This document shows, piece after piece, positions 10,626-27,766 of a stretch of 64,000 bases of DNA (the first letter of the stretch is position 1; each line of letters opens with the position of its first letter). The position numbers and the translations under genes were made by a program. This stretch comes from Thermoplasmatota archaeon (GTDB taxonomy: Archaea; Thermoplasmatota; Thermoplasmata; RBG-16-68-12; JAGMCJ01): positions 2,930 through 66,929 of the forward strand of contig JAJISE010000005.1 in NCBI GenBank assembly GCA_022848865.1, in the 5' to 3' direction. The notes beneath the pieces are model-generated. The model was not told the origin of the DNA, made no database searches, and saw nothing but the letters and a program-made list of their open reading frames with translations.

Positions 10626-11336
10626 ATGCAGGAGAATGGAAGGTTCAAGAGCTATGTCCTTGGCTTTGATGACAAGCTGGACGGCGGAATCCCGGAAGGC
10701 CACATCGTTCTCGTTTGTGGAGAACCGGGCACGATGAAGTCCAGCTTGGCCTTCAGCATGCTGTACAACAACGCGCTGAAGGAGGACAGGGTCGCGGCCT
10801 ATCTCTCGCTCGAGCAGGGGAGGGACAGCCTGCTCAAGCAGATGAAGGGGATGGGGATGGACCCGCAGAACGTCGAGGACAAGCTCAGCATAGTCGACCT
10901 GAGCCTGATCAGGCGGAACCTGGAAACGCTCAAGGACCAGAGTTGGGTGGAAATCTTCAAGATGTACGCCTCCAATCTGAAGAAGAACACGGATTTCGAC
11001 CTCTTCTGCCTCGACTCGCTCTCGATCCTGGAGACGCTCGCCCGTTTCGAGTATCCCAGGGAGGAGCTCTTTCAGCTCTTCGAGTGGCTCAAGGACCTTG
11101 GTACGACGTGCCTGATCATCAGCGAGATGAACATCGGTGAGAAGCCGTTCGGCAGGTACGGGGAGGACTTCGTGGCAGACGGCATCATCCACGTGAAGAT
11201 GGAGAACGTGGACGAGGTCAACGTCCAGAGGCGCATAAGATGCGTGAAGATGAGGGGCACGAGTCACAGCCCGAACTACTACACGCTCCTTTTCGAAGAT
11301 GGCGTGTTCCAGGCGACGAGGGTCATCAGCGAATAG
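10626..11336 (+). CDS. KaiC-like / RecA-superfamily ATPase (single KaiC domain, FlaH/ArlH-like size) with a degenerate Walker A
   Basis: DGGIPEGHIVLVCGEPGTMKSSLAF. The P-loop reads GEPGTMKS, with Met in place of the conserved Gly. Walker B-like LFCLDSL. 236 aa. Confidence 0.75.
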   Translation: MQENGRFKSYVLGFDDKLDGGIPEGHIVLVCGEPGTMKSSLAFSMLYNNALKEDRVAAYLSLEQGRDSLLKQMKGMGMDPQNVEDKLSIVDLSLIRRNLETLKDQSWVEIFKMYASNLKKNTDFDLFCLDSLSILETLARFEYPREELFQLFEWLKDLGTTCLIISEMNIGEKPFGRYGEDFVADGIIHVKMENVDEVNVQRRIRCVKMRGTSHSPNYYTLLFEDGVFQATRVISE

Positions 11337-14400: not shown

Positions 14401-16612
14401 GCACTACAGCTTCGTTACGACCGAGAAGGCGGAGCTTCTCCTCGTCATCGGCGACGACACGTTCCCGCCGGAGAGTGTCGATAGGTACAAGAACGCGTTC
14501 GAGAGCTTCGGGTGGTCCTACAACGAGTGGTATGTGGACAGAAGCGGCGTTCCGACGCTAATGCTGCTCCAGGGATACAAGGTCGTGCTCTGGCAGACCG
14601 GCCTGGAGGAGTATCCACCGTTCGAGCCTGAGGAAAGGGTCCTGATAACGAACTACATAGACGAGGGAGGACGGTTCTTCGTCTCCTCGCACGACGTCGC
14701 ATGGGCGCTTGCCAAGGACTCCGGTTCCGAATACGCGTCAGTAGAGTCCGGACAGTGGGTCAATTCCACACTGAAGGCGGACTGGGACATAGACCCCAGC
14801 CTCTGGACGGCCAACGAGGGGTCCATCGGAGACCCGATCAGCAATGAGTACGTTGGATTCAACCGGGTAAATTACGAGCCCCACAGGTCAGGTGGTTCTG
14901 GGGATGAGGTTAAGGCTCAGAGCTACGGTGGATCCGCCTCGACCGTCTGGATGAACTACGGGATCGATGCTTCCCCGGGGGATATCGGGCTCAAGTGGGT
15001 CTCCTCGGCTGCGAACGGGACCGCGGGGCCTGGGAAGGTCTGGGGAGGTCAACCATCTAAGCTGGCCTTGTACTTCTTCGAGGTCTCCCGAATCAACTTC
15101 GCGGACGTGAACGACCTGGACAGAGGCTCGATAATCAACAAGACGGTCGTGTGGCTGATTGGCCACGACCATCCAGATGTCCAGGTGATCTCTCCCAACG
15201 GCGGAGAGGTCTTCGTCGGGAACACCGTACAGATCGACTGGAGCCGCCAGGTGTACTCGTCAGGCGTAAACAGCCAGGCGCTCTTCTACAGCCCGGACGA
15301 CGGTCAGTCATGGGTGAGGATAACGCCCGACCCGCTGCCGGGAGACACGACCTACAACTGGAACGTGATCGGCCTGCAGAACGGGATACACTACCGCGTG
15401 AAGGTCGTTGTCGAGGACGACGGCGTCCCCTACCCGATGCTCAACGGCACGGACATATCGGACGACACGTTCACGATCCTGAAGCCCGGGGGAGACAATG
15501 TTGGCCCCATAACCGTCCCGGGAAGCATAAACGCAGTCCCGAACCCGGGCGAGAGGTACACGAGCATCGCATTCACGGCGACCGTCGACGATACGAACTA
15601 CGGGAACTCGATGATACAGGCCGTGGAGTTCTACATGGACGCTCCTGGACCCGACGGCGGAGGAACGCCGATGAGCCCTGTGGACATCTTCGACACCGCC
15701 CTGGAGCAGGCCACTTGGACCGGCTCGGCGGACTGGCCGCCCGGAGTGCACTGCATCTTCATCCACGGGCAGGACGCCGCGAACAACTGGGGCGAGTGGG
15801 AGTCCAGGTGCTTCACCATGCTCGGCAAGGTAGTGCAGGCCGCATCCAACTTCATGGCGGGAATCACTGGATTCGCCTACGCGGATGTGACCCTCGCATG
15901 GACATTGTCACCTGACGACCCGCTTGACGTGACCAACTATGCCATCTACTACGGAACGAGCTATGACCCGACGGCTACAAGCTACTCGTTCCTCGCCAGC
16001 GTCCCGAACCAGACGGGAATGTACGTTCACGCAGGAGCTGGTTCGGCCATCAGCAATTACTACTACGCGATATACTCCAACAGCTCGGGCGGCGATTCCA
16101 CCATGGCCTCGCAGCAGGCGGCGAAGTACTGGATACTTCTTATTGGGGGCGTGAACTTCATCTCGGTGCCGATCACGCCATCCGACCCGTTCCCGGCAAC
16201 GGTGTTCAAGATGATGGACACCGACTTCAGGGTCTGGACCTACGACCCGCTGGCGGGCGGTTGGGACAGTTTCAATTCGGTCAAGCCCTACGGCGGAGGA
16301 TTGTCCACGATTATGCCTGGCAAGGGCTACTGGTTGGACGTTCCCGCAGCGGACGATCTCCACGTCGCTGGATACGTGCAGACCCAGGTCTCGATCGAGC
16401 TGATCTCGCCCTGGACGCTTGTCGGATACCCATCGCTCACGGGCTCGATGACGGTCGGTGACCTGAAGGCGACGACCGGGGCGACGAAGGTCGAGGGATA
16501 CTCGGCGGCAGCGCCCTACCACCTGCAGGAGCTTGCGGACGTGTACGTCCTTGCACCCGGAGAGGCCTACTGGGTCGGCGGCGCCGACTACATCTGGCTG
16601 GTCTACATCTGA
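11471..16612 (+). CDS. Giant secreted subtilisin-like serine protease (peptidase S8), 1713 aa. Domain order: N-terminal hydrophobic signal or anchor, propeptide-like region, S8 catalytic domain, beta-sandwich, Fn3-like domain, an insert of about 520 aa, and a conserved C-terminal module.
   Basis: Catalytic Asp in DTGLDFDH, His in HGTMVSGT, Asn in NDGLNGPGSPATAKN, Ser in GTSYSGPVVSG. GGAGG lies 9 nt before the ATG at 11471 (the track ORF starts at 11453). TTTTTATAA promoter at about 11379. Confidence 0.85.
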   Translation: MKLTEGESFARVLAIAVGLLMVVPATYIAGFSTPLEMVTAETTFVYFGSENDRDALMESGVEILEIYDSFALVRTTTAQNDMFQSQGMIVDMPYDLHAIHVNGMIIDTRVGESEIPANLRLEAYRSDVDGHYLVQFHGPVKEEWKQDIERLGGRVLNYIPNDAFIVQLDAELLDDVRSLTEVQWLGVFQPAYKVRPALFEMSGRVSVKIITFADEGLGQVVSSLHRDQINSYFETDDFGVVKAEVDVTDIPSFAKLNSVQYIEPIYEMEPTNANMQWIMQTDIPDNRRLWDMGLHGEGQIIAVADTGLDFDHRFFREDGGTVQTGDIYNVTDLNRRKVVRYQTMSHWIGIDRMTDPWAWKDSAYMWVAGNITSGHGTMVSGTLTGNDDPLGASLNDGIAKGAKIYFQDIGTLYKNPEWSDWWDDSLRFIPDDYHDLFWDPYNDTARIHSNSWGAKNSDYDLEAMMVDKFMWEYPEMLVVFSTGNDGLNGPGSPATAKNTIAVGWHGNFPNQDKVDSSSSVGPTDDGRRTPTVMAVGQGVSSRSSGNNWDNSNIGNELGWQGTSYSGPVVSGLAAITRQYYTEGWYPTGNAVPANGFTPSGALLKSTIAVAGQQMQGARADRMFEGTWPNRAQGWGRVVLDNALYFPGDASRLHIVDHTEGLATGESVEYTYYASSGAIPFKVAMAYSDYPGATPTTKALVNNLDLLVTSPTGETFKGNVFTSGNVYVDYMESRPDFGSYDIDNPLETVLDLSPSIGFWKVRVTGTNVPSGPQPFALSIIGATDPGYGQLFLDRTLYGDSDTITITVEDADAVGPLIVPVYSDTETGGENVTLLEIGAGVFEGAINTAFGTPTADGALQVSEDDTVTVEYADTTVPIRTLQQTALIDGAPPMITGVKATRITNAAATIVWNTDESATSTVFYDTSPVSLTNTAVKTPAGLFVSHSIDVIGLQTGLRYYFDVESTDRFGHTTLDDNQGQHYSFVTTEKAELLLVIGDDTFPPESVDRYKNAFESFGWSYNEWYVDRSGVPTLMLLQGYKVVLWQTGLEEYPPFEPEERVLITNYIDEGGRFFVSSHDVAWALAKDSGSEYASVESGQWVNSTLKADWDIDPSLWTANEGSIGDPISNEYVGFNRVNYEPHRSGGSGDEVKAQSYGGSASTVWMNYGIDASPGDIGLKWVSSAANGTAGPGKVWGGQPSKLALYFFEVSRINFADVNDLDRGSIINKTVVWLIGHDHPDVQVISPNGGEVFVGNTVQIDWSRQVYSSGVNSQALFYSPDDGQSWVRITPDPLPGDTTYNWNVIGLQNGIHYRVKVVVEDDGVPYPMLNGTDISDDTFTILKPGGDNVGPITVPGSINAVPNPGERYTSIAFTATVDDTNYGNSMIQAVEFYMDAPGPDGGGTPMSPVDIFDTALEQATWTGSADWPPGVHCIFIHGQDAANNWGEWESRCFTMLGKVVQAASNFMAGITGFAYADVTLAWTLSPDDPLDVTNYAIYYGTSYDPTATSYSFLASVPNQTGMYVHAGAGSAISNYYYAIYSNSSGGDSTMASQQAAKYWILLIGGVNFISVPITPSDPFPATVFKMMDTDFRVWTYDPLAGGWDSFNSVKPYGGGLSTIMPGKGYWLDVPAADDLHVAGYVQTQVSIELISPWTLVGYPSLTGSMTVGDLKATTGATKVEGYSAAAPYHLQELADVYVLAPGEAYWVGGADYIWLVYI

Positions 16613-16655: not shown

Positions 16656-19600
16656 ATGACGAGCAGAAGCGTCATCGCAGTAATGCTATCCCTCGCGTTC
16701 ATCCTGACAATCGGTCCAGTTGACCTCGCCTCGACGAAAGGAGAGGTGTACGACGCGCGGGTGGGCGATCCGCACTACCTCGGAATCTATGGATTCGCTT
16801 TCGATACCAGGAACGGGGAGCCGCTGATTCCCGCCGCTCTGAGAGTGACAGACTATCCCACTGGAGGCGATGGTTACTACATCGTGCAGTTCAGCGGTCC
16901 CGTCACGGAGGAGTACAAGGAGTCGCTGACGCGAGCGGGCGGGGAGATCGTGAACTACGTTCCTTCGAATGCTTTCCTCGTGAGGATGGCCCCCGGACTG
17001 CGCACGAACCTGGAGAAGGTCCAGGCAGTCCAGTGGACGGGCGTCTTCCAGCCCGCGTACAAGATAGTGCCCGAGCTCACGTTCGAGGCGGGGATAGTCG
17101 AGGCCCAGATCATCACGTTCAATCCGGATGGCGTCAACGCCGTTCTCGAGCTGCTCCCGGAGCGCAGGGTCATCTACACGTACGAGGGCAAGGACTTCGG
17201 CAGAGTGGACGCCCGCGTGACCTACGAGCAGGTCGTCGAAATCGCCCGCCTCGCCGACGTCAACTTCATACAGCCGCGAGAGGTTCCGGAGGTCCAGAAC
17301 AGGCGGATGCAGTGGATAATGCAGACGAACGTCCAAAACGACAGGCGCATCTGGGACATGGGGATATCAGGCGAGGGACAGCTCGTCGGGTTCTCCGACA
17401 CGGGGATAGATTTCGACCACAACTTCTTCCGCGAGAACGCGACGACGATACAGAAGGGCGACATCTATAACGTCACGGACACGACCCGAAGGAAGCTCGT
17501 GCGGTACTGGGTGCACGGCGGCGCAAACCAGGAGTGGGCATGGAAGGACAGCCCCAACCGCTGGGACCCCGGCGCTGGATGGGCGACCATAGGACACGGG
17601 ACCATGGTGACGGGGACGTTCGGCGGCAATGACGATTCGATCGGCTCGAGCACCAATGACGGAGGCGCCAAAGGCGCCAAGGTGTTCTTCCAGGACATAG
17701 GAGACGTGCAGCAATGGGGAGGATACTGGCGGGATGCCTTGGCCTGGGTACCCTCTGACTACGACAATCTCTTCGGTCCCGCCTACAACGCGGGCGCGAG
17801 GGTGCACTCAGGTTCCTGGGGCTCCTCCACGACCGCCTACACGCAGGGCGCGCAGATGCTGGACGAATTCATGTGGAACAATCCTGATATGCTGATCATA
17901 TTCTCGAACGGGAACGGAGGCGGGGGCTGGTACGACGTCGTTAGCCCCGCCACTGCCAAGAACGTGCTGTCATCGGGATCGAGCGCGACGTCTCCGAACC
18001 AGAACAGCGTCGCCGACTACAGCAGCCCCGGACCGACCTCCGACGGTAGGAGAAAGCCCACCGTCATTGCGGTCGGAGAAGGCACCTCATCCATGTCTAC
18101 GGGGAACCCGAGGGACGATACGAACACGGCCTGGGAGGCGGGCTGGGGCGGAACGAGCTACTCGGCACCCGACCACGCATCGCTCGCGGCCATGACCCGC
18201 CAGTACTTCATGGAGGGTTGGTGGCCGACTGGGACGAAGAACCCCGCGGATGGTTTCGAGCCCTCCGCAGCATTGGTGAAGGGCGTGCTGGCGGCAAGCG
18301 CCCAGCAGATGACCGGCTCGTACACGGACAGGGAGAACGAGAACACCTGGCCCAACAACGCACAAGGCTGGGGGCGGGTCCTCCTGGACGACGCACTCTG
18401 CTTCGCCGGGGACACGAGGCGCATGGAGATCGTTGACGACACGTCCAGCCTGAGCACGGGAGAATCAAGGATCGAGTCCTACTACGTTCTCGATTCCGCA
18501 GAGCCGCTGAGGGTGATGCTCACGTGGACCGATTATCCCGGGGTCGCGTGGACCACACCGAACATCGTGAACGACCTCGACCTTCTTGTGACGGACCCGC
18601 TCGGAACCACGTACAAGGGCAATGTCATGGGGACCTTCGCTCAGGGAGAGTCGCAACCCGACACAGGCAGCTACGACAGGCTGAACGTGCAGGAGGGCGT
18701 CCACATCAAGAGCCCCATGGTGGGCGCGTGGACGATAGAAGTGATAGGGTACAACGTCCCGAGCGGCCCGCAGCCCTACGCCCTGGTGGCGCTCGGCGAC
18801 CTCGGCACGGGCTGGGGGCAGGTGTACCTGGACCGGAGCGTCTACGGGGACAGCGACACGATAGGGATAACTGTCCGGGACACGGGACCGACGGCCGTGA
18901 ACGTGACCATCTGGAGCACGACGGAACCCACTCCCGAGACGGTCTCGCTGAACGAGTCCGCGCCCGGCTCAGGGAGATGGACGGGGACGATCAACACTAC
19001 TACCGGTGCGCCAACGACTGACGGAGAGTTGCAGGTCTCGGAGGGCGATCTGGTGACCGTTCAGTACGACGACATGAACCCGATACACACTTCCACGGAC
19101 ACGGCGACGATAGACGCCTCGGCCCCGCTGATATTCAACCTCATGGTAACCAACATCACGTCCACGACCGCGAACGTCATATGGAGGACGAACGAGCCCG
19201 CGGACTCGAGAGTGTACTACAACACGAGCGACCCGCTCGACGCGGAGGAATACATGAGCGGGTACCGCATCCAGCACGACGTGCTACTGACGGGACTGCA
19301 GCCCGAGACGACGTACATGTTCGACGTGGAGTCCTCGGACCCGTACGATCACACGACCACTGACACGAATGGAGGGCTGCACTACAACTTCACGACGCTG
19401 AAGCTCTCGCCCGAGCCCCCGACGAACCTCAGAGCATGGCTGTTCGGACCCAACTACATCCATGTCCATATCGAGTGGGACCTCTCGGCAGACGACGCGA
19501 CGATGATCGACCACTACACGGTGTACTTCAACACAGGCGCATACGATCCAGACGGGACGGGATACCAGTTCCTGGCGACGGTCCTGCAGGGCTTCAACTT

Positions 19601-20189
19601 CTACAACCACTACAACATGGGGCACCTGAACTGGATGAACATCTTCTACTACGTGGAGGCGAACTACAGCGCTGGACTTCCGGCCAGGACCGAGGACCAG
19701 GCGGCCAAGTTCACAAGATGGACGCCACCGGGCAACGTGCTTCTTTCCTTCCCGCTCAAGATGGTCAACGAGACCATAGAGTACGCGCTGCAGACGGTCA
19801 GCTGGGACATGGCGAGGTTCTACGATCCGTGGACGGAGGAGTGGAGGGAGAACCACATCTGGAAGAGCTGGAACGACCTTCTGACGGTGAACCAGTCCAT
19901 GGCGATCTGGGTCAATGTGACTTCGGCCGAGCCTGTGACGAGCGCGGGGGTCGTGCCCAAGAGCGCGGAGATCTTCCTGAAGGAAGGGTGGAACCTGGTC
20001 GGGTTCCCGCACCTGTACTGGGACTACACAGCTGGCGATCTGATGGCGCAGACCGGGGCCGAGAAGGCGGAGAGCTTCAACGCCGTCGCACCGCCGTACT
20101 ACCTGTACCGCCTCACTGGACCGATGTACATGGCCCCGGGCGAAGGATACTGGATAAAGGTCCCCGCCGACACCATGTGGATGCTGTAG
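16656..20189 (+). CDS. Secreted subtilisin-like serine protease (peptidase S8), 1177 aa. It is a paralog of the upstream gene with the same domain order but lacks the 520-aa insert.
   Basis: Sec-type signal MTSRSVIAVMLSLAFILTIGPVDLA. DTGIDFDH, HGTMVTGT and GTSYSAPDH catalytic motifs. Fn3-like domain. C-terminal module homologous to protease 1 (GWNLVGFP...APGEGYW). Own TATA (catatagg) about 26 nt upstream. Confidence 0.85.
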   Translation: MTSRSVIAVMLSLAFILTIGPVDLASTKGEVYDARVGDPHYLGIYGFAFDTRNGEPLIPAALRVTDYPTGGDGYYIVQFSGPVTEEYKESLTRAGGEIVNYVPSNAFLVRMAPGLRTNLEKVQAVQWTGVFQPAYKIVPELTFEAGIVEAQIITFNPDGVNAVLELLPERRVIYTYEGKDFGRVDARVTYEQVVEIARLADVNFIQPREVPEVQNRRMQWIMQTNVQNDRRIWDMGISGEGQLVGFSDTGIDFDHNFFRENATTIQKGDIYNVTDTTRRKLVRYWVHGGANQEWAWKDSPNRWDPGAGWATIGHGTMVTGTFGGNDDSIGSSTNDGGAKGAKVFFQDIGDVQQWGGYWRDALAWVPSDYDNLFGPAYNAGARVHSGSWGSSTTAYTQGAQMLDEFMWNNPDMLIIFSNGNGGGGWYDVVSPATAKNVLSSGSSATSPNQNSVADYSSPGPTSDGRRKPTVIAVGEGTSSMSTGNPRDDTNTAWEAGWGGTSYSAPDHASLAAMTRQYFMEGWWPTGTKNPADGFEPSAALVKGVLAASAQQMTGSYTDRENENTWPNNAQGWGRVLLDDALCFAGDTRRMEIVDDTSSLSTGESRIESYYVLDSAEPLRVMLTWTDYPGVAWTTPNIVNDLDLLVTDPLGTTYKGNVMGTFAQGESQPDTGSYDRLNVQEGVHIKSPMVGAWTIEVIGYNVPSGPQPYALVALGDLGTGWGQVYLDRSVYGDSDTIGITVRDTGPTAVNVTIWSTTEPTPETVSLNESAPGSGRWTGTINTTTGAPTTDGELQVSEGDLVTVQYDDMNPIHTSTDTATIDASAPLIFNLMVTNITSTTANVIWRTNEPADSRVYYNTSDPLDAEEYMSGYRIQHDVLLTGLQPETTYMFDVESSDPYDHTTTDTNGGLHYNFTTLKLSPEPPTNLRAWLFGPNYIHVHIEWDLSADDATMIDHYTVYFNTGAYDPDGTGYQFLATVLQGFNFYNHYNMGHLNWMNIFYYVEANYSAGLPARTEDQAAKFTRWTPPGNVLLSFPLKMVNETIEYALQTVSWDMARFYDPWTEEWRENHIWKSWNDLLTVNQSMAIWVNVTSAEPVTSAGVVPKSAEIFLKEGWNLVGFPHLYWDYTAGDLMAQTGAEKAESFNAVAPPYYLYRLTGPMYMAPGEGYWIKVPADTMWML

Positions 20190-20216: not shown

Positions 20217-22055
20217 TCAGAGGACGCCAAAGAAGTACGAAGCGCACAGGAACGAGAGCGAGTACAGTGGTATCGACACGATGAGCCCCTTCCCGATTCT
20301 TGAGAGAGTCGTGGTGATGTCGCCTCCCTGAAGGCCTTCCGTGAAGTAGCTCGCCACCGCCAGGTTGCAACACAGGAGAGCTCCCAGGATCAGCACGAGA
20401 GCGGACGGTGTCATCCCTCCGGAGCCCGAGAAGTGAGCTTCCATGAGCAGGGACATCGAGGCCGTGACCCCGAGCACCAGGGGCGAGAAGAACGTGAGGG
20501 TGCTGTTCACCGTCTGGACTATCGGGCTCATCTCGTCCCTTGCATCTGCCTCGATCCTCGAGGTGTCCCTGAGGTCGGATGCGATCAGCTTGGCCACCGT
20601 TCCCGCCAGAATCCCGTCCTTCTGCGTGATGTCCACGACCGCCTTGAGATTCGATCCCAGAATGGGTTCATCCCGAATCACGCTTTCGCATGTCAGCGTC
20701 TCCCCGGCCGTGGTCGTGCCCCTCGACATGAGGAAGATGTCCCTGGTGATCCTCCCCGCCAGTTCCGTCCCTTCCATCCGTTCCGCGGTCTTCAGAAGCG
20801 CCTCCTCCAGGGGCTTTTCCGCCAGAAGGAAGTCGCCAAGAGACTCGAGCCCCTCCGAGACATCCTCGCGGGATACTTGCGGCATCGTGCCTTTCATCAT
20901 CCTGCCCGTGAAGAGCATTGCGAGAGCTATCATCGAGGATGCGGACACAAGAACCACGAGGGACGAGACCGGCGTGGGCTCGAGAAGCCAGGCAGTCGCC
21001 ACACCCAGGACGATCGTGATGGATGCGGCAGCAAGGAGGGCGGACATACCACGGAGGCCGAGCTGGAGACGGCCAGGGGAGGAGAACGGCCGCCTGGACA
21101 GAACCTCCCTGCAGTACAGGAGCATGCCCAATGGGAAGACTATGTCGAGAATCACTGCAATCGCGGCGGGGCTGAGAGCGCTTTCCCCGCTCATTCCTTC
21201 GCCAGCAATGCCCACGGGAGCCGCGACGGTGAGCGAGGACATGGGCAGCAGCGAGGCGATCATGACGGGAAGCACGATACCCAGAGCGAAGACAACGTTT
21301 ATCGGCGCTTTGAGGGATGCGAGATATCCTTTGAGCTTCCTTCTCGTGTGCAGGTGGACAGGGGACATCAGGGAGCCGAGGTTGTCCCTGCGGCCCAGTC
21401 TCACGGCATCCGAGAACCGCCGTAGAGCCTCCTCGAGACCATCGTTTCTTCCCCTCCATTTCCGCACGTACTCGCCGAAATCCTCTGGGAGACTTCTTCC
21501 CTTCATGTGAACGTTCCAGATCATCCGCTGGAAGCCACCCTTCAGCATCCCCCTGGAGTTCTTCGCGGAGGAAAGGACCGCGTTCTCATAGGTCAGCGCC
21601 CCTCCCGCGCCGCCGATCAGATAGCTCATCACCTCTGGAGCCTCCCTGAGGGACGATTTCTCGATCCTCGCGGCGAGCGTTGCCGGATACGACAGGAACG
21701 TTCTCTGGAGAAGCAATGGGAGGATGAGAGCGAGAACGATGTAGATGGAGTGCGGGTGAAGCACCGCGAGGACCGGGACCGCCAGAAGAGAGCAGAGGAG
21801 GACCAGTCGTCCACCGGAGACCACCTCTCCAGGCCTCAGCCCTAGCCCCACGAAGGCGATGTCGTCCTCGATCGATCTCATGTCATAATCCAGCATCGAC
21901 TTCAGCTTCGAAAGGGCCGGGACAAGCCGCTTCTTGGCGCCTGACCGAGCCGTCCGGGCCGGGGCCGGGCTTGGCTTCGTCCTGCACCGCAGAGGTCCGA
22001 GCGTGCGGTGTGCAAGCCTGCAGAGCCTCGTGAATGCTACCCCGGGCCTAGACAT
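20217..22055 (-). CDS. Type IV pilus / archaellum assembly platform protein (TadC/FlaJ/GspF-like polytopic membrane protein)
   Basis: 612 aa. Two internally repeated halves, each with a cytoplasmic helical domain and TM helices. 8-nt overlap with the upstream ATPase gene. Confidence 0.75.
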   Translation of the reverse strand: MSRPGVAFTRLCRLAHRTLGPLRCRTKPSPAPARTARSGAKKRLVPALSKLKSMLDYDMRSIEDDIAFVGLGLRPGEVVSGGRLVLLCSLLAVPVLAVLHPHSIYIVLALILPLLLQRTFLSYPATLAARIEKSSLREAPEVMSYLIGGAGGALTYENAVLSSAKNSRGMLKGGFQRMIWNVHMKGRSLPEDFGEYVRKWRGRNDGLEEALRRFSDAVRLGRRDNLGSLMSPVHLHTRRKLKGYLASLKAPINVVFALGIVLPVMIASLLPMSSLTVAAPVGIAGEGMSGESALSPAAIAVILDIVFPLGMLLYCREVLSRRPFSSPGRLQLGLRGMSALLAAASITIVLGVATAWLLEPTPVSSLVVLVSASSMIALAMLFTGRMMKGTMPQVSREDVSEGLESLGDFLLAEKPLEEALLKTAERMEGTELAGRITRDIFLMSRGTTTAGETLTCESVIRDEPILGSNLKAVVDITQKDGILAGTVAKLIASDLRDTSRIEADARDEMSPIVQTVNSTLTFFSPLVLGVTASMSLLMEAHFSGSGGMTPSALVLILGALLCCNLAVASYFTEGLQGGDITTTLSRIGKGLIVSIPLYSLSFLCASYFFGVL

Positions 22056-23817
22056 ACACGGCCCTCACATCCATCCATTCCTTCCACTGCGCAACCAGGT
22101 CGCTGCCGGAGTAGCCCTCCTCGATGAGGGATGAGAAGACCGAGTTCGCCAGTGAGACGAGCTTCGCGGAGAGCAGCTTCGTCCCCAGCCTGCGGGCGAG
22201 CTCGACGACGTGGAGCTTACACTCAGCCCTAGCGTGGATGTTAGCAAGAGCTTCACCGTAGCTCATCCCCCAGGAGTTCGCAATCTCTCGAATCTTGTTG
22301 GAACCTTGAAGGAAGACATCGGTCTCGACAAGAGAGTCCTGCGAGATGCTGAACCTCATCAGGGGGAGGAACCTGCCATCATAGGATTCCTTGCAGAGCT
22401 CGGAGATCTCGATCACCCTGCGTCTGGAGTTCTGCGTTCCCCTCGGCCGGAACAGTCCCGCGACGATGACGATATCAGTGGCCGAGAAGGACTGCGGAGG
22501 AATGCCCAGGTCGTGGACAACTCGCTCGAACACGCTCCTGGATGAGCTTCCGTGGATCGTTCCGAGGACTGCCGAGCCCGCGGTTCCCACCCGCATCGCC
22601 TCGTAGAGCGTCTTGGCTTCCTCCCCCCTGACCTCCCCGAGGACCAGGGCCGATTCGCCCAAGCGGAGAGAGACCCTTAGCGCCTTCTCCGCTGTCATCC
22701 GGTTCGACGACTGCCCGGAACCGACATACAGGCCCTGGATCTTGTACCCGAGGCGGCGGAGCTCCGCGCACGGGAGCTCCAGTGTGTCCTCGATCGTGAG
22801 AACGCGCTGGCTGGTCGGGAACTCGAACATCATCGCTCCCAAGAGGGAGGACTTCCCCGCCCCGCGACTGCCCGTGACGAGTATCGTGGCATTCCCGTCG
22901 ATGAGGAACGAGATGAGACCGGCGGCTAGCGGCGTCAGACTCCTGTGATAGACCAACTTCGTGAGCGTCCAGGGGTCCGTGGAGTGCCTGCGAACGGCGA
23001 GGGCTATCCCGTCTGGGCTGAGCGGTGGTGCGACGGCCGTCAACCTGGCGTTCATGTCACCGAGGTCCGTCTCAAGGATCGGGCTCCTCTCCGAGAACGG
23101 CTTCCCGCTCATGATGAGGAGCTTGGAGATGATGTTACGCAGGCCCGTTTCGCACATGAGGATGTTCGACCTGCATCTCTGATGCGATCTTCCTCCCCCG
23201 GCGTCGGCAACCGTGAGATGGAGCGGCACCTTTTCGCAGGGTGCGTCGAGAAAGATGTCCTGAACGTTGGAATCGGCAAGGAGGATCTCGAGGATTCCCA
23301 GCCCGGCGGTGTTCCTCTCCAGAAGGACCGCCAGAAAGCGAGACCGACGCAATCGCTCGGCCTTCCCCAGGGTTCTGGGCAGATGGAGCGCGATCAGGTG
23401 TTCCGCCCGATTCCTGATGTAGCGTCTCACCTGGGCGGCGTTGCCGAGATCGAGATTCGAGGGCAGGACGGACCAGATCTCATCCACGACGTTCCAGAGG
23501 ATCGAGAGCTCATCCTCGGGTACTTCGAATGAGGGCGGAGAGAGCCAGTAGAGGAAATCGGGGGAATTCTCCAGACGGAAGATCTGGATGCGAGACTCTT
23601 CGACGGCATAGCTGCTGGTCACCTCGAGATGCTCAGGAGGGTCGCCGAGGACCCAGAAGGAGACGAAGAAGGGCTTCCACTTCTGGTCCCTGGCAAGGAG
23701 CCGGCCGATTGACCGTTGGATGGCACTTGTGTCTATCCTTCTGATCCTGAGAGCCGCGTGGGCGTAGGGGTCTCGCAGCGCGGTGGAGGTTCTCGAAGTC
23801 CTTTCGGCCGAGGTCAC
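22048..23817 (-). CDS. Type IV filament assembly ATPase (FlaI/TadA/GspE/VirB11 superfamily)
   Basis: Walker A VTGSRGAGKSSLLGAM. GEVRGEEA box typical of FlaI/TadA. 589 aa with an N-terminal domain. Confidence 0.85.
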   Translation of the reverse strand: MTSAERTSRTSTALRDPYAHAALRIRRIDTSAIQRSIGRLLARDQKWKPFFVSFWVLGDPPEHLEVTSSYAVEESRIQIFRLENSPDFLYWLSPPSFEVPEDELSILWNVVDEIWSVLPSNLDLGNAAQVRRYIRNRAEHLIALHLPRTLGKAERLRRSRFLAVLLERNTAGLGILEILLADSNVQDIFLDAPCEKVPLHLTVADAGGGRSHQRCRSNILMCETGLRNIISKLLIMSGKPFSERSPILETDLGDMNARLTAVAPPLSPDGIALAVRRHSTDPWTLTKLVYHRSLTPLAAGLISFLIDGNATILVTGSRGAGKSSLLGAMMFEFPTSQRVLTIEDTLELPCAELRRLGYKIQGLYVGSGQSSNRMTAEKALRVSLRLGESALVLGEVRGEEAKTLYEAMRVGTAGSAVLGTIHGSSSRSVFERVVHDLGIPPQSFSATDIVIVAGLFRPRGTQNSRRRVIEISELCKESYDGRFLPLMRFSISQDSLVETDVFLQGSNKIREIANSWGMSYGEALANIHARAECKLHVVELARRLGTKLLSAKLVSLANSVFSSLIEEGYSGSDLVAQWKEWMDVRAVYV

Positions 23818-24173
23818 CCCTCCACGATTCCAAGGCCTACCCTGAGAGCGAACCGTCTGAGGAGCATCGCCTCGTCAAGGATGATGAGGGCATCCGTCTT
23901 CGTCTGGAAAAGGCACAATTCGCACCTGGGTCCGCCATCCTCCTTAGCGATCTCAAGCATCTTCCTCAGCGTCGAGAAGAAATCGGTGAGCCCGCTAAGG
24001 AACGCGGCCTCCAATTCGACAAACAGCCTCCTCGGGTCCAGCTGACATCCGCGGCATTGCTTCAACTCCTTCTTCGGCCGGCAGCGCTGGTTCAGCTCCG
24101 CCCTGATCGCTGAGAGGGCGTCCAACAGGCTCCTCATCCTGGACAGGAGCTCCACGCTCAGCGTCGTGTACAT
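23814..24173 (-). CDS. Small zinc-ribbon protein, hypothetical. This is the conservative trimming of a 345-aa track ORF.
   Basis: CRPKKELKQCRGC ... CELC (Cx9CxxC ... CxxC). 4-nt overlap with the ATPase start. A longer version would run through the pilin promoter and gene on the opposite strand. Confidence 0.3.
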   Translation of the reverse strand: MYTTLSVELLSRMRSLLDALSAIRAELNQRCRPKKELKQCRGCQLDPRRLFVELEAAFLSGLTDFFSTLRKMLEIAKEDGGPRCELCLFQTKTDALIILDEAMLLRRFALRVGLGIVEG

Positions 24174-24335
24174 CTTCACAATGGTTCCGGAGAGAACCAC
24201 TCTCTCGATCCTCAGCCTGGAGTCGAAGGCCAATAACGAACCTGTGAAGCACCTCTGCTTCCTCAGATCGGGCCGGGCGTCGCATCCCGTGCAGTCGATC
24301 TCGAGAAGGTTCCTCTCTTTTGAATACTCCGCCCT

Positions 24336-24373
24336 GCATATGTCCAGGCCGACATCCCTCCGAACGCATATGC
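24336..24373 (+). promoter_or_regulatory. Two copies of the palindrome GCATATG(C), 30 nt apart, upstream of the pilin-like gene. Candidate regulator binding sites.
   Basis: ctGCATATGtcc at 24336-42 and cGCATATGCaac at 24366-73. They are followed by a TATA-like gatattta at 24407-14, then the ATG at 24438. Confidence 0.35.
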
Positions 24374-24437
24374 AACTTCCGTGAGGGTTAAAAACCTTCT
24401 TGGCAAGATATTTACCCAGTCCCCCGTTAGTAATAGC

Positions 24438-24887
24438 ATGTGGAGGGACGAGAGAGCAATTTCGCACATTCTGGAGGAGCTCGTGGCACTGGTGGTAATC
24501 CTCACGGCGCTGGGCCTGCTCCTGGTGAGCCTGCAGGGGAGATACGTGAACGAGATCGACACGCTGAAGGCACTGGAAATGAAGGAGGATGCAAGGGGTC
24601 TCCTTGAGAAGATCGTTTCCCACCCTCGGCTGACCAAGGACGGGGAATACCTCCTGCTGGACCAATGCTCTCTGATCAACGTGTCCGTTGAGCGGTTGGG
24701 AGAGATCCTCCAGACGCCGTACGAGTTCCGATTGGCGATATATGACGTGACGAACTCGACGGGCAGGTCCTTCCAGACTTCCGCGCCGTTCGGGAATGTC
24801 ATCGGATCGACGACTAGCTGCAACGTCTGGATCCGACAGGGGGAGGTCCACGCCGCTCGGGTGTCGATCCTCATTTGGAGAGGGTGA
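24438..24887 (+). CDS. Putative type IV pilin-like protein (class III signal-peptide-like N-terminus)
   Basis: MWRDERA|ISHILEELVALVVILTALGLLLV. The short polar N-region ends in R-A, followed by a hydrophobic helix of about 22 aa with acidic residues at +5/+6. TATA about 28 nt upstream. Confidence 0.45.
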   Translation: MWRDERAISHILEELVALVVILTALGLLLVSLQGRYVNEIDTLKALEMKEDARGLLEKIVSHPRLTKDGEYLLLDQCSLINVSVERLGEILQTPYEFRLAIYDVTNSTGRSFQTSAPFGNVIGSTTSCNVWIRQGEVHAARVSILIWRG

Positions 24888-24888
24888 G

Positions 24889-25407
24889 ATGAACAGTACG
24901 GGTCAGCTGGCCGTCACGGATGCGCTTATCTTCCTGCTGATCGCGAGCCTGATCGTGTCCTTCTCGCTGATGGGCATGTCCGGGCATCTGGAGATCTCGG
25001 AAATCCACTCCGCGGCGGACATGAAGGACTACGCGGAGGACACGTTCATCGTCCTGATGCGCAGCACGCTAGACCTGGAACGTTGCGGGGCGAACCACAC
25101 GCAGGCGGTCGACAGATACATCCTGCTCAGGACCAGCTCGCAAGACAGTGGGGAGTCGACGGAGCCACTGATTGAATGCAATCTGCTCGTGCACGAACTC
25201 GCGAGGAATCTGATACTGGAAAGGTACTGCTTCCTCCTCTCTTCCAGCTACATCAACGAATCCTCGGGAGGGCTCACGAAGATCGTGTTCGCCCCGGAAG
25301 AGAGTGACCCGCCGAGCGAGCACTTCCGGCTGAGCTGGGCCTACCCGATGATTGGTTTCGGGAAGTCAGGCGAAGCTATCGTCAGTCTTGATCTCTGGCG
25401 AAGGTAG
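24889..25407 (+). CDS. Putative type IV pilin-like protein, second of the tandem pair
   Basis: MNSTG|QLAVTDALIFLLIASLIVSFSL. The start is 1 nt after the stop of the previous gene (the track ORF is trimmed to this Met). Confidence 0.45.
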   Translation: MNSTGQLAVTDALIFLLIASLIVSFSLMGMSGHLEISEIHSAADMKDYAEDTFIVLMRSTLDLERCGANHTQAVDRYILLRTSSQDSGESTEPLIECNLLVHELARNLILERYCFLLSSSYINESSGGLTKIVFAPEESDPPSEHFRLSWAYPMIGFGKSGEAIVSLDLWRR

Positions 25408-26537: not shown

Positions 26538-27050
26538 CTACGTATACCAGTCCTCGCCTCCAACCTTGCTGCTTGAGGCTCTCCATAGGATGACGAGTTC
26601 GTAGTGGCTTCCTGGCTTGCACGTAATCGTGAAGAAATCACCGACGGACAGGCTATACCCACCGTCCACGTCGGTGAAGGACAGGGGAGGGGGCGTCCCT
26701 TCATCTAGCGGGGCGATTCTGTCCAACCAAGTGCCGTTCTCCAGGAGTATCGCCTCGAAGTCATCCAGAAGCTCAAAGGACGAGACCCCTGCAACGGCCA
26801 CGCTCCATTGATTACCGGCCGATAGTTCCGGGACGTCCAGTATTACGACTGGCTCATATGATCCGTCATAACCAATCAATCCGCTGACCATGACGTACAG
26901 GACGGCACTCATGACAACGGACGCGATGATGAAAACCGCCACGACCACAACGATGATTGTCAGGGCCGTCTTGTCATCACGCTTCTGGGGCACCCACGGT
27001 CCAGGGTAAGGGTAGGTCTGCAAGGCGCACAGAATCGTTCGTATCGACAT
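26538..27050 (-). CDS. Single-pass membrane protein with a beta-rich ectodomain of about 110 aa, paralog A. Candidate minor pilin or filament-associated protein.
   Basis: PQKRDDKTA-LTIIVVVVAVFIIASVVMSAVLYV TM segment. TATA (cttatatt) and GGAGG lie upstream of the ATG at 27050. Homologous to the next gene (F[TI]D.DG...D.F..TC....Y...L). Confidence 0.5.
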   Translation of the reverse strand: MSIRTILCALQTYPYPGPWVPQKRDDKTALTIIVVVVAVFIIASVVMSAVLYVMVSGLIGYDGSYEPVVILDVPELSAGNQWSVAVAGVSSFELLDDFEAILLENGTWLDRIAPLDEGTPPPLSFTDVDGGYSLSVGDFFTITCKPGSHYELVILWRASSSKVGGEDWYT

Positions 27051-27157: not shown

Positions 27158-27628
27158 CTACGTCTGCCACTCCACGGAGTCCAGTATCTCCATGTCGGTC
27201 CGATGGACGAGCGTGAAGGAATAGCCGCTCTTGGATTCGCAGGTCAGCCTGAAGTAGTCATCGGACGACAGACGCCAATCTCCATCGTGGTCGATGAACG
27301 TGATTCCGGGAGATGAGCCGGTCAACGGCTCCAGCGTGATCGTGTAGGAGTCGTCTTCGTCCAGTGTCGCCACATAGTAGTACAGGCTCCGGGTTGGATT
27401 GGCCGACTCGACCATGACCTCCCAAACGTTGCCACCGATTGCCCTGGCCTTCGAGAGCCGCGTTTCGGAAACCTCGCCCGAGCCAGGCAACAGGATATAG
27501 AAGTAGAACATGGCCGCTGAGACCATGATAACGATGACAATGAGGATGCCGACGATCCCCGATGCGGACGCACGGGCTCCAGTCGAGTTAGGGACTCTAC
27601 GGCATGCTTGTCCGGTCAACCGCGTCAA
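27158..27628 (-). CDS. Single-pass membrane protein, paralog B. The start is uncertain: it is either the TTG at about 27628 or the ATG at 27526.
   Basis: GIVGILIVIVIMVSAAMFYFYILLPG TM segment. The C-terminal domain is homologous to paralog A. The N-terminal 95 aa of the track ORF look like noncoding GC-rich translation. Confidence 0.4.
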   Translation of the reverse strand: MTRLTGQACRRVPNSTGARASASGIVGILIVIVIMVSAAMFYFYILLPGSGEVSETRLSKARAIGGNVWEVMVESANPTRSLYYYVATLDEDDSYTITLEPLTGSSPGITFIDHDGDWRLSSDDYFRLTCESKSGYSFTLVHRTDMEILDSVEWQT

Positions 27629-27766
27629 TCGCAAAAGTATCCCTCTTAACTTCGATATGAGAGTCGACTTGTGGCAATATAACAGTTCTCTTCTAAATAT
27701 CACATTCACACACCTCCCGCTCGAAGCCTTATACGCTCCGCCCGCGTCGTCAGGTGCAGTGATAGC

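Follow-up and report, generated by a model that had tools for sequence, protein, structure and literature searches.

The 64,000-nucleotide stretch of Thermoplasmatota archaeon DNA analysed here (the window; assembly GCA_022848865.1, contig JAJISE010000005.1, positions 2,930 to 66,929 of the forward strand) carries two adjacent genes for secreted subtilases of the S8 family, protease 1 (P1) and protease 2 (P2), which share a C-terminal module of about 160 amino acids (aa) that is the subject of this study (Table 1; all nucleotide positions are those of the window). The peptidase domain spans residues 302-605 of P1 and residues 239-573 of P2 in Pfam searches, and both proteins have an N-terminal hydrophobic, signal-like segment, P1 beginning with MRGGFEMKLTEGESFARVLAIAVGLLMVVPATYIAGF and P2 with MTSRSVIAVMLSLAFILTIGPVDLAS. 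The P2 gene starts 44 bp downstream of the P1 gene, and the first ~930 residues of the two proteins are 48% identical in a pairwise alignment; P1 and P2 are tandem paralogues. The alignment also reveals in P1 an insert of ~460 aa (residues ~992-1453; window 14426-15811, + strand) which is absent from P2 and which has no Pfam match at E ≤ 0.1. Besides Peptidase_S8, scans of the full proteins against Pfam and NCBIfam returned just one match upstream of the shared tail, to fn3/Pur_ac_phosph_N, in P2.

A preliminary description of this DNA, made by reading the sequence without database searches, had claimed that the last ~160 residues of the two subtilases align. The alignment was readily reproduced: the last 170 residues of P1 and P2 match each other in phmmer searches (E ~1e-18) and the last ~268 residues are 32% identical (BLASTP E 5e-36), a similarity that is far beyond chance and from which we take the module to be homologous between the two proteins. 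A hidden Markov model (HMM) of the family places the module at residues 1557-1717 of P1 and 1017-1176 of P2, in essentially exact agreement with the coordinates and residue ranges first proposed. The extent was correct for the module itself, but the shared tail reaches ~100 aa further upstream, into a domain that resembles fibronectin type III (Fn3-like); the common tail, of ~265 aa, is formed by this domain (~90-100 aa) followed by the module, after the end of which only two residues in P1, and a single residue in P2, precede the stop codon. No further copy of the module was found by phmmer or the family HMM in a six-frame translation of the 64-kb window.

The two blocks of motifs that had been listed for the module turn out to be two copies, A and B, of one repeat of ~78 aa. 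Profiles of the two halves, built from 107 relatives, align with each other in hhalign at a probability of 98.7% (E 3.5e-16), and half-unit HMMs detect repeats A and B both in P1 (E 5e-16 and 2e-23, respectively) and in P2 (E 7.5e-24 and 1.3e-24). As judged from these profiles, the module consists of a ~78-aa unit duplicated in tandem, and the consensus of this unit reads x-I-x-L-x-x-G-W-N-L-(I/V)-(S/G)-x-P ... (Y)D ... W ... L/M-x-(P)G-x-G-Y-W-(V/I)-x-V ... W-x-V. The consensus originally put forward was biased toward P2: where P2 reads GWNLVGFP and APPYY, P1 reads PWTLVGYP and AAPYH. The P2 module contains three N-x-S/T sequons, the P1 module none.

Table 1. Features of the protease pair, of the shared tail and of neighbouring genes in the window (ORF, open reading frame; AF2, AlphaFold2).
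Feature	Position	Strand	Evidence
Protease 1 (P1), secreted S8 subtilase, 1719 aa	11453-16612	+	ORF list; Pfam Peptidase_S8 E 9.5e-30
P1 Fn3-like beta-sandwich, seven strands, directly before module	15845-16105	+	AF2; alignment to P2
P1 C-terminal module	16121-16603; repeat A ~16124-16378, repeat B ~16382-16603	+	Family HMM E 1.4e-41; AF2
Protease 2 (P2), secreted S8 subtilase, 1177 aa	16656-20189	+	ORF list; Pfam Peptidase_S8 E 1.3e-28
P2 Fn3-like domain before module	19422-19682	+	Coordinates carried over from P1 model via BLASTP alignment
P2 C-terminal module	19704-20183; repeat A ~19710-19958, repeat B ~19962-20183	+	Family HMM E 9.5e-50; AF2
KaiC-like ATPase	10626-11336	+	
Polytopic membrane protein	20217-22055	-	
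T2SSE-family ATPase	22048-23817	-	
Regions of archaeal type IV pilus-like locus	20217-24851 (-), 10626-11336 (+), 24796-25407 (+), 26538-27050 (-), 27158-27910 (-)		

AlphaFold2 models, which the preliminary description had suggested as a check, were built with the 107-sequence alignment and proved confident. The P2 module is predicted with a mean local confidence (predicted local distance difference test, pLDDT) of 95.3 and a predicted template modelling score (pTM) of 0.88, each repeat having the topology beta-beta-alpha-beta-beta-beta-beta. For the 270-aa tail of P1 (window 15800-16609; pLDDT 95.1, pTM 0.90), the model consists of the Fn3-like sandwich, whose seven strands lie within tail residues 16-102, and then the two repeats; a pTM this high over the whole tail indicates that the Fn3-like domain and the module form a rigid cassette. 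Neither tail has a hydrophobic helix. The description of the module as an autonomous, extracellular, all-beta domain of ~160 residues is well supported. A Foldseek search of the PDB returned no match at E ≤ 1e-3 (best E 0.045, template modelling (TM) score 0.16), the best structural neighbours, none of which reached this threshold, being RCK_C/TrkA_C domains (4ys2_A, 4xtt_B and 6i8v_A); on the predicted model, the module probably represents an unclassified fold. The sole significant structural neighbour was a single match in BFVD, A0A8D9C8P8 (587 aa; Foldseek E 8.5e-4, TMq 0.58), the record of which bears the label 'putative hemin binding protein [uncultured marine phage]'. No viral copies of the module were found in a scan of IMG/VR or by tblastn against INPHARED phages.

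Searches of Pfam-A and NCBIfam with either tail gave no match at E ≤ 1, except for a match of P2 to DUF1737 (PF08410) over 22 residues that, at 12.7 bits (E 0.12), does not reach the gathering score of 24 bits. The matching stretch (window 19980-20045) lies at the start of repeat B and corresponds to residues 200-221 of a tail taken as window 19380-20186. Among the 107 relatives, four members gave similarly weak, sub-threshold matches to DUF1737 (best E 0.0012), and the match is probably a coincidence at the level of a motif. No Pfam family covers the module in these relatives or in 67 full-length representatives, in which Pfam matches are confined to the N-terminal passengers, and sequence searches of the PDB were empty, whether the query was one sequence or a trimmed 19-sequence profile. 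Thus, the module family is absent from Pfam-A, NCBIfam and the PDB. Neither the module nor its motif was found described in the literature searched for the motif strings and for surface anchoring in Thermoplasmata. The Fn3-like domain that precedes the module likewise has no match to Pfam fn3 (PF00041), which recognizes only a more N-terminal domain of P2, at residues 823-892.

The preliminary description had also not recognized the module as a PGF-CTERM signal, a C-terminal domain (CTD) of the type IX secretion system (T9SS), a PKD domain or a transmembrane anchor, and had named PPC and CARDB as common domains that would make it ordinary. These exclusions stand. The T9SS C-terminal sorting domain (PF18962/TIGR04183) has no HMM match on either tail or in the 107 relatives, and the same is true, in Pfam, of the PPC (pre-peptidase C-terminal) domain (PF04151). 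PGF-CTERM and other archaeosortase signals have no match in NCBIfam, and the ends of P1 (...GEAYWVGGADYIWLVYI) and P2 (...GEGYWIKVPADTMWML) contain no transmembrane segment. Matches to CARDB (PF07705) and PKD (PF00801, PF18911) are confined to the passenger regions of some relatives and never fall over the module; nor is the module recognized as a GW module (PF13457; SH3-like fold), an SLH domain (PF00395; helical), LysM or a dockerin (PF00404; helical), or, by sequence or by fold, as a carbohydrate-binding module (CBM) or a lectin.

A single-sequence search found only four relatives of the module, all from Thermoplasmata, but a five-sequence profile in a word-indexed search retrieved 474 clusters; those named by source are nearly all from Thermoplasmata/Thermoplasmatota metagenome-assembled genomes (MAGs), including Ca. 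Proteinoplasmatales SG8-5, with one from Methanosarcinales. In an exhaustive HMMER search of 1.84 billion representatives at 50% identity, 19,596 matches were obtained at E ≤ 1e-3, 8,277 at E ≤ 1e-10 and 2,689 at E ≤ 1e-30; the profile included ~100 upstream positions, and the weakest tier may contain matches to passengers only. Scanning the GTDB species representatives with one peptide pattern gave 361 confirmed loci, and each of the best 80 belongs to a MAG of Thermoplasmata, 'Methanomassiliicoccales' or Thermoplasmatota. Per MAG, there are at least 14 loci in RS_5_45, at least 10 each in E29_bin30 and RS_14_3, and at least nine in CSMAG_404. That the family is very large, and expanded in sediment Thermoplasmata, is well supported. 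A 3424-aa protein that NCBI assigns to a Candidatus Cloacimonetes bacterium MAG (P0125; MCF7912336.1, annotated as 'PKD domain-containing protein') has five internal modules, along with eight PKD domains, a type I dockerin at its C-terminus and Laminin_G_3; given this architecture, the family is limited neither to archaea nor to C-terminal positions. With one of the Cloacimonetes modules as the query, a search gave only 12 matches, unnamed and without Pfam coverage.

Nothing is on record for the exact P2 sequence in public assemblies (exact-sequence lookup). Of two metagenome fragments in ENA, P0005 shares 93% identity with the P1 tail and P0001 shares 80% with the second half of that of P2, from which it follows that close relatives of the source organism are present in public metagenomes. 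In another family member, P0138, the region downstream of the module is weakly similar to a 53-aa stretch of the P1 insert (LQGYKVVLWQTGLEEYPP...GGRFFVSS; BLASTP E 5e-5).

The position of the module was assessed in 96 module-bearing ORFs from 79 genomic loci, 14 of which hold two or three module genes, as does the window. As had been anticipated, the module is found at the C-termini of other proteins: it ends no more than six residues from the stop codon in 89 of the 96 ORFs and lies at the extreme C-terminus in 116 of 131 new representatives. An N-terminal hydrophobic signal segment is present in 71 of the 82 ORFs with a complete 5' end, and in most of these 82 the same Fn3-like domain precedes the module, with the junction motif QAAKFTRP. 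N-x-S/T sequons are enriched two-fold, 756 being observed in 241 modules against 385±18 in composition-matched shuffles, and recur where repeat A ends, for instance as W(V/I)N(V/I)T, an enrichment that fits an extracellular and glycosylated module. The passengers are mutually unrelated: NosD/right-handed beta-helix proteins account for ~46% of 67 full-length members, and the others include BNR, DUF11, lamin-tail (LTD), FG-GAP, PKD, Big_5, Kelch, PQQ and Laminin_G_3 proteins and peptidases of families M14 and C1, to which the two proteases of the window add S8.

Copy number and arrangement vary within the family. The number of repeat units rises to three or four in some members, and others have two tandem modules; in P0182, P0222, P0250 and P0123, repeats A and B are split by an insert of 75-140 residues, resembling a domain insertion. 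Tails with a transmembrane anchor, in which an Arg/Lys tail follows the helix, were seen in P0179, P0217, P0225, P0027, P0040 and P0045. In the metagenomic protein P0124 (862 aa), a signal peptide is followed by two modules in tandem, PKD, a transmembrane helix and a cytoplasmic winged-helix domain; the latter is of the HVO_0163-type/MarR-like kind, and the module there resembles the sensor end of a DNA-binding transmembrane protein.

The region flanking the protease genes resembles an assembly locus for an archaeal type IV pilus-like structure (Table 1), and small ORFs with N-terminal hydrophobic, pilin-like segments are found close to the protease pair. The window also contains genes for MCM and for an aldehyde:ferredoxin oxidoreductase, which confirm that the DNA is archaeal. 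Across the 79 loci, however, the only recurrent neighbours are syntenic housekeeping genes and genes for other secreted proteins. A functional link between the module and the adjacent pilus-like genes was therefore rejected, and this neighbourhood is treated as incidental because it does not recur.

The occurrence of the module on unrelated passengers, in many copies per genome and at the C-terminus is what an anchoring or sorting domain would be expected to show. We favour, at a probability of about 0.4, the reading that the module is a non-covalent device for surface retention or docking, which would bind something common to all of the proteins that bear it. The signal peptide would send the subtilases through Sec export, and the exported enzymes, having no membrane anchor, would dock non-covalently, through their C-terminal cassette, to a shared component of the cell's own envelope, candidate targets being a glycan, a surface-layer protein and an anchored scaffold protein. 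Docking would hold the proteases, together with dozens of module-tagged beta-helix, BNR, PKD and peptidase proteins, at the cell, where otherwise they would be lost to the sediment. Such a role would be akin to that of SLH domains, GW modules or dockerins, and the variable number of repeats is reminiscent of avidity-based wall-binding repeats. A C-terminal transmembrane helix was called in 2 of 64 module-bearing ORFs but in 12 of 21 secreted ORFs without the module (Fisher p 1.6e-7; complete, signal-bearing ORFs of at least 300 aa within the 79 loci), which is the pattern expected if the module were an alternative means of staying on the cell, in a comparison that draws on loci chosen for containing the module, and thus subject to ascertainment bias, and on transmembrane calls made by simple hydropathy.

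This bias weighs against surface retention, and so do several properties of the family. No ligand or partner of the module was found, and clustering of neighbours across the 79 loci brought up no recurrent partner or machinery gene. In ~5% of members the protein continues past the module with a 60-90-aa linker rich in Ser, Thr, Pro and Asp, one transmembrane helix and a basic tail; since these proteins have a helix, the module is not needed for their anchoring. Moreover, P0124 and P0125 fit a generic ligand-binding domain and a self-envelope anchor equally well. In view of the transmembrane-anchored, internal, N-terminal and bacterial variants, the module is best described as an autonomous unit of the binding type, and not as an obligate C-terminal tag. 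The preliminary description had argued for a sorting, anchoring or secretion-recognition domain: a portable C-terminal module, nearly exclusive with transmembrane anchors, agrees with the anchoring part of that proposal, which we regard as plausible, whereas secretion recognition is weakened by the internal, multi-copy, N-terminal and bacterial variants and by those in which a linker and a transmembrane anchor follow the module.

The conservation of the tail between the two proteases, which had been offered as an argument for such a role, proves nothing alone, P1 and P2 being tandem paralogues. The explanation that the tail is conserved merely because the two genes are recent duplicates, for which their 48% identity over 930 aa would speak, can nevertheless be given practically no weight; it is refuted by the hundreds to thousands of proteins that carry the module together with unrelated domains at their N-termini. 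The main rival, if on balance an unlikely one, is that the enzymes are released and that the tail, as a CBM- or lectin-like module, targets particulate organic matter or another extracellular ligand. The varied positions and copy numbers of the module, with the five internal copies of P0125 as an example, would suit a substrate-binding function, as would the sensor-like layout of P0124, a transmembrane winged helix-turn-helix protein with two distal N-terminal copies, and the coexistence of module and transmembrane anchor in ~5% of members; conserved Trp, Tyr and Gly residues are also abundant, as in many glycan-binding beta domains. Yet the module has no similarity to CBMs or lectins in sequence or in fold, and polymer hydrolases are a minority among its passengers (NosD-like beta-helix proteins account for about 46%, and BNR, LTD, FG-GAP and DUF11 proteins are among the others); the strong complementarity with C-terminal transmembrane helices, expected of a substitute for an anchor, is not required of a substrate-binding module.

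Two further explanations take the cassette to be a structural element or an export signal. That it serves as a stalk, a stabilising cap or a homotypic assembly domain for arrays is unlikely, although a pTM of 0.90 over the Fn3-like domain and the module suggests a rigid unit, the internal duplication makes the module pseudo-dimeric, and the presence of the module on both transmembrane-anchored and unanchored proteins could allow the former to tether the latter through module-module contacts; a pure spacer would not be expected at the extreme C-terminus of ~90% of the proteins. The same terminal position, typically 0-3 residues from the end, is what would be seen for a signal that a dedicated machinery for export or attachment reads and perhaps cleaves off, in the manner of a T9SS CTD or a sortase signal; many paralogues per genome on unrelated passengers point the same way, as do the genes next to the protease pair, for a T2SSE-family ATPase and for a polytopic membrane protein. 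We nonetheless consider such a signal quite improbable: modules also occur internally, at the N-terminus, in tandem and before transmembrane anchors, the proteins that bear them already have N-terminal signal segments, no HMM of a T9SS CTD, of PGF-CTERM or of another NCBIfam sorting signal matches, and no machinery gene is conserved near the 79 loci, the T2SSE neighbour included.

Retention at the surface, our preferred reading, can be taken one step further. It is possible, but doubtful, that the cassette of Fn3-like domain and double GWNL repeat is the address tag of an as yet undescribed archaeal surface-display system, in which sediment Thermoplasmata, including protein-degrading lineages of the Proteinoplasmatales type, would attach dozens of exo-enzymes and adhesin-like beta-helix proteins non-covalently to a common receptor or scaffold of the envelope. 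S8A and other extracellular peptidases, for example, have been reported in Ca. Proteinoplasmatales (PMC9123169), and uncultured sediment Thermoplasmata have been credited with extracellular protein degradation. The module offers a concrete and testable candidate for the way in which cells that have no conventional wall might retain their exo-enzymes, and an abundant but unannotated domain would tag a large share of the secreted proteome in place of membrane anchors. If surface display were true, it would be an archaeal counterpart of display through SLH domains and the S-layer or through cohesin and dockerin, built on a fold without a solved relative. At the least, the module defines a new domain family, whose members number in the thousands and whose model is confident; a database entry for it would improve the annotation of archaeal secretomes.

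Among known systems, SLH domains, the GW modules of Listeria and LysM, with which bacterial surface proteins bind the cell envelope non-covalently, are alike in that short terminal repeats (in our case ~78 aa, twice and sometimes three or four times) are carried by many unrelated secreted passengers of one genome, and here too the module would substitute for a covalent or transmembrane anchor; with GW modules it further shares a conserved Gly-Trp dipeptide in each repeat. It differs from all three in having neither a sequence match (Pfam, E ≤ 1) nor a fold match to them, and its hosts are archaea, which have no peptidoglycan or teichoic acids. The T9SS CTD, of ~80-100 aa, is likewise C-terminal, beta-rich and present on dozens of unrelated secreted proteins per genome, whereas the module, at ~160 aa, consists of two repeats, has no HMM match to the CTD and is sometimes placed internally, at the N-terminus or before a transmembrane anchor; archaea are not known to possess a T9SS. 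PGF-CTERM/archaeosortase signals and the plain transmembrane anchors of archaeal surface proteins lie at the same end of the same kind of protein, and in these genomes a secreted protein has either a C-terminal transmembrane anchor or the module; but the module is a folded domain of 160 aa without a hydrophobic helix or a basic tail. Dockerins are, as the module is, internally duplicated C-terminal modules on many different secreted proteins, which they tag for docking; their fold is small, Ca-binding, helical and EF-hand-like, and that of the module all-beta. No cohesin-like partner of the module was identified, and one family member, P0125, carries the module together with a true dockerin. 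The module defines a new domain family in a familiar kind of role, presumably that of a terminal accessory module of surface and secreted proteins.

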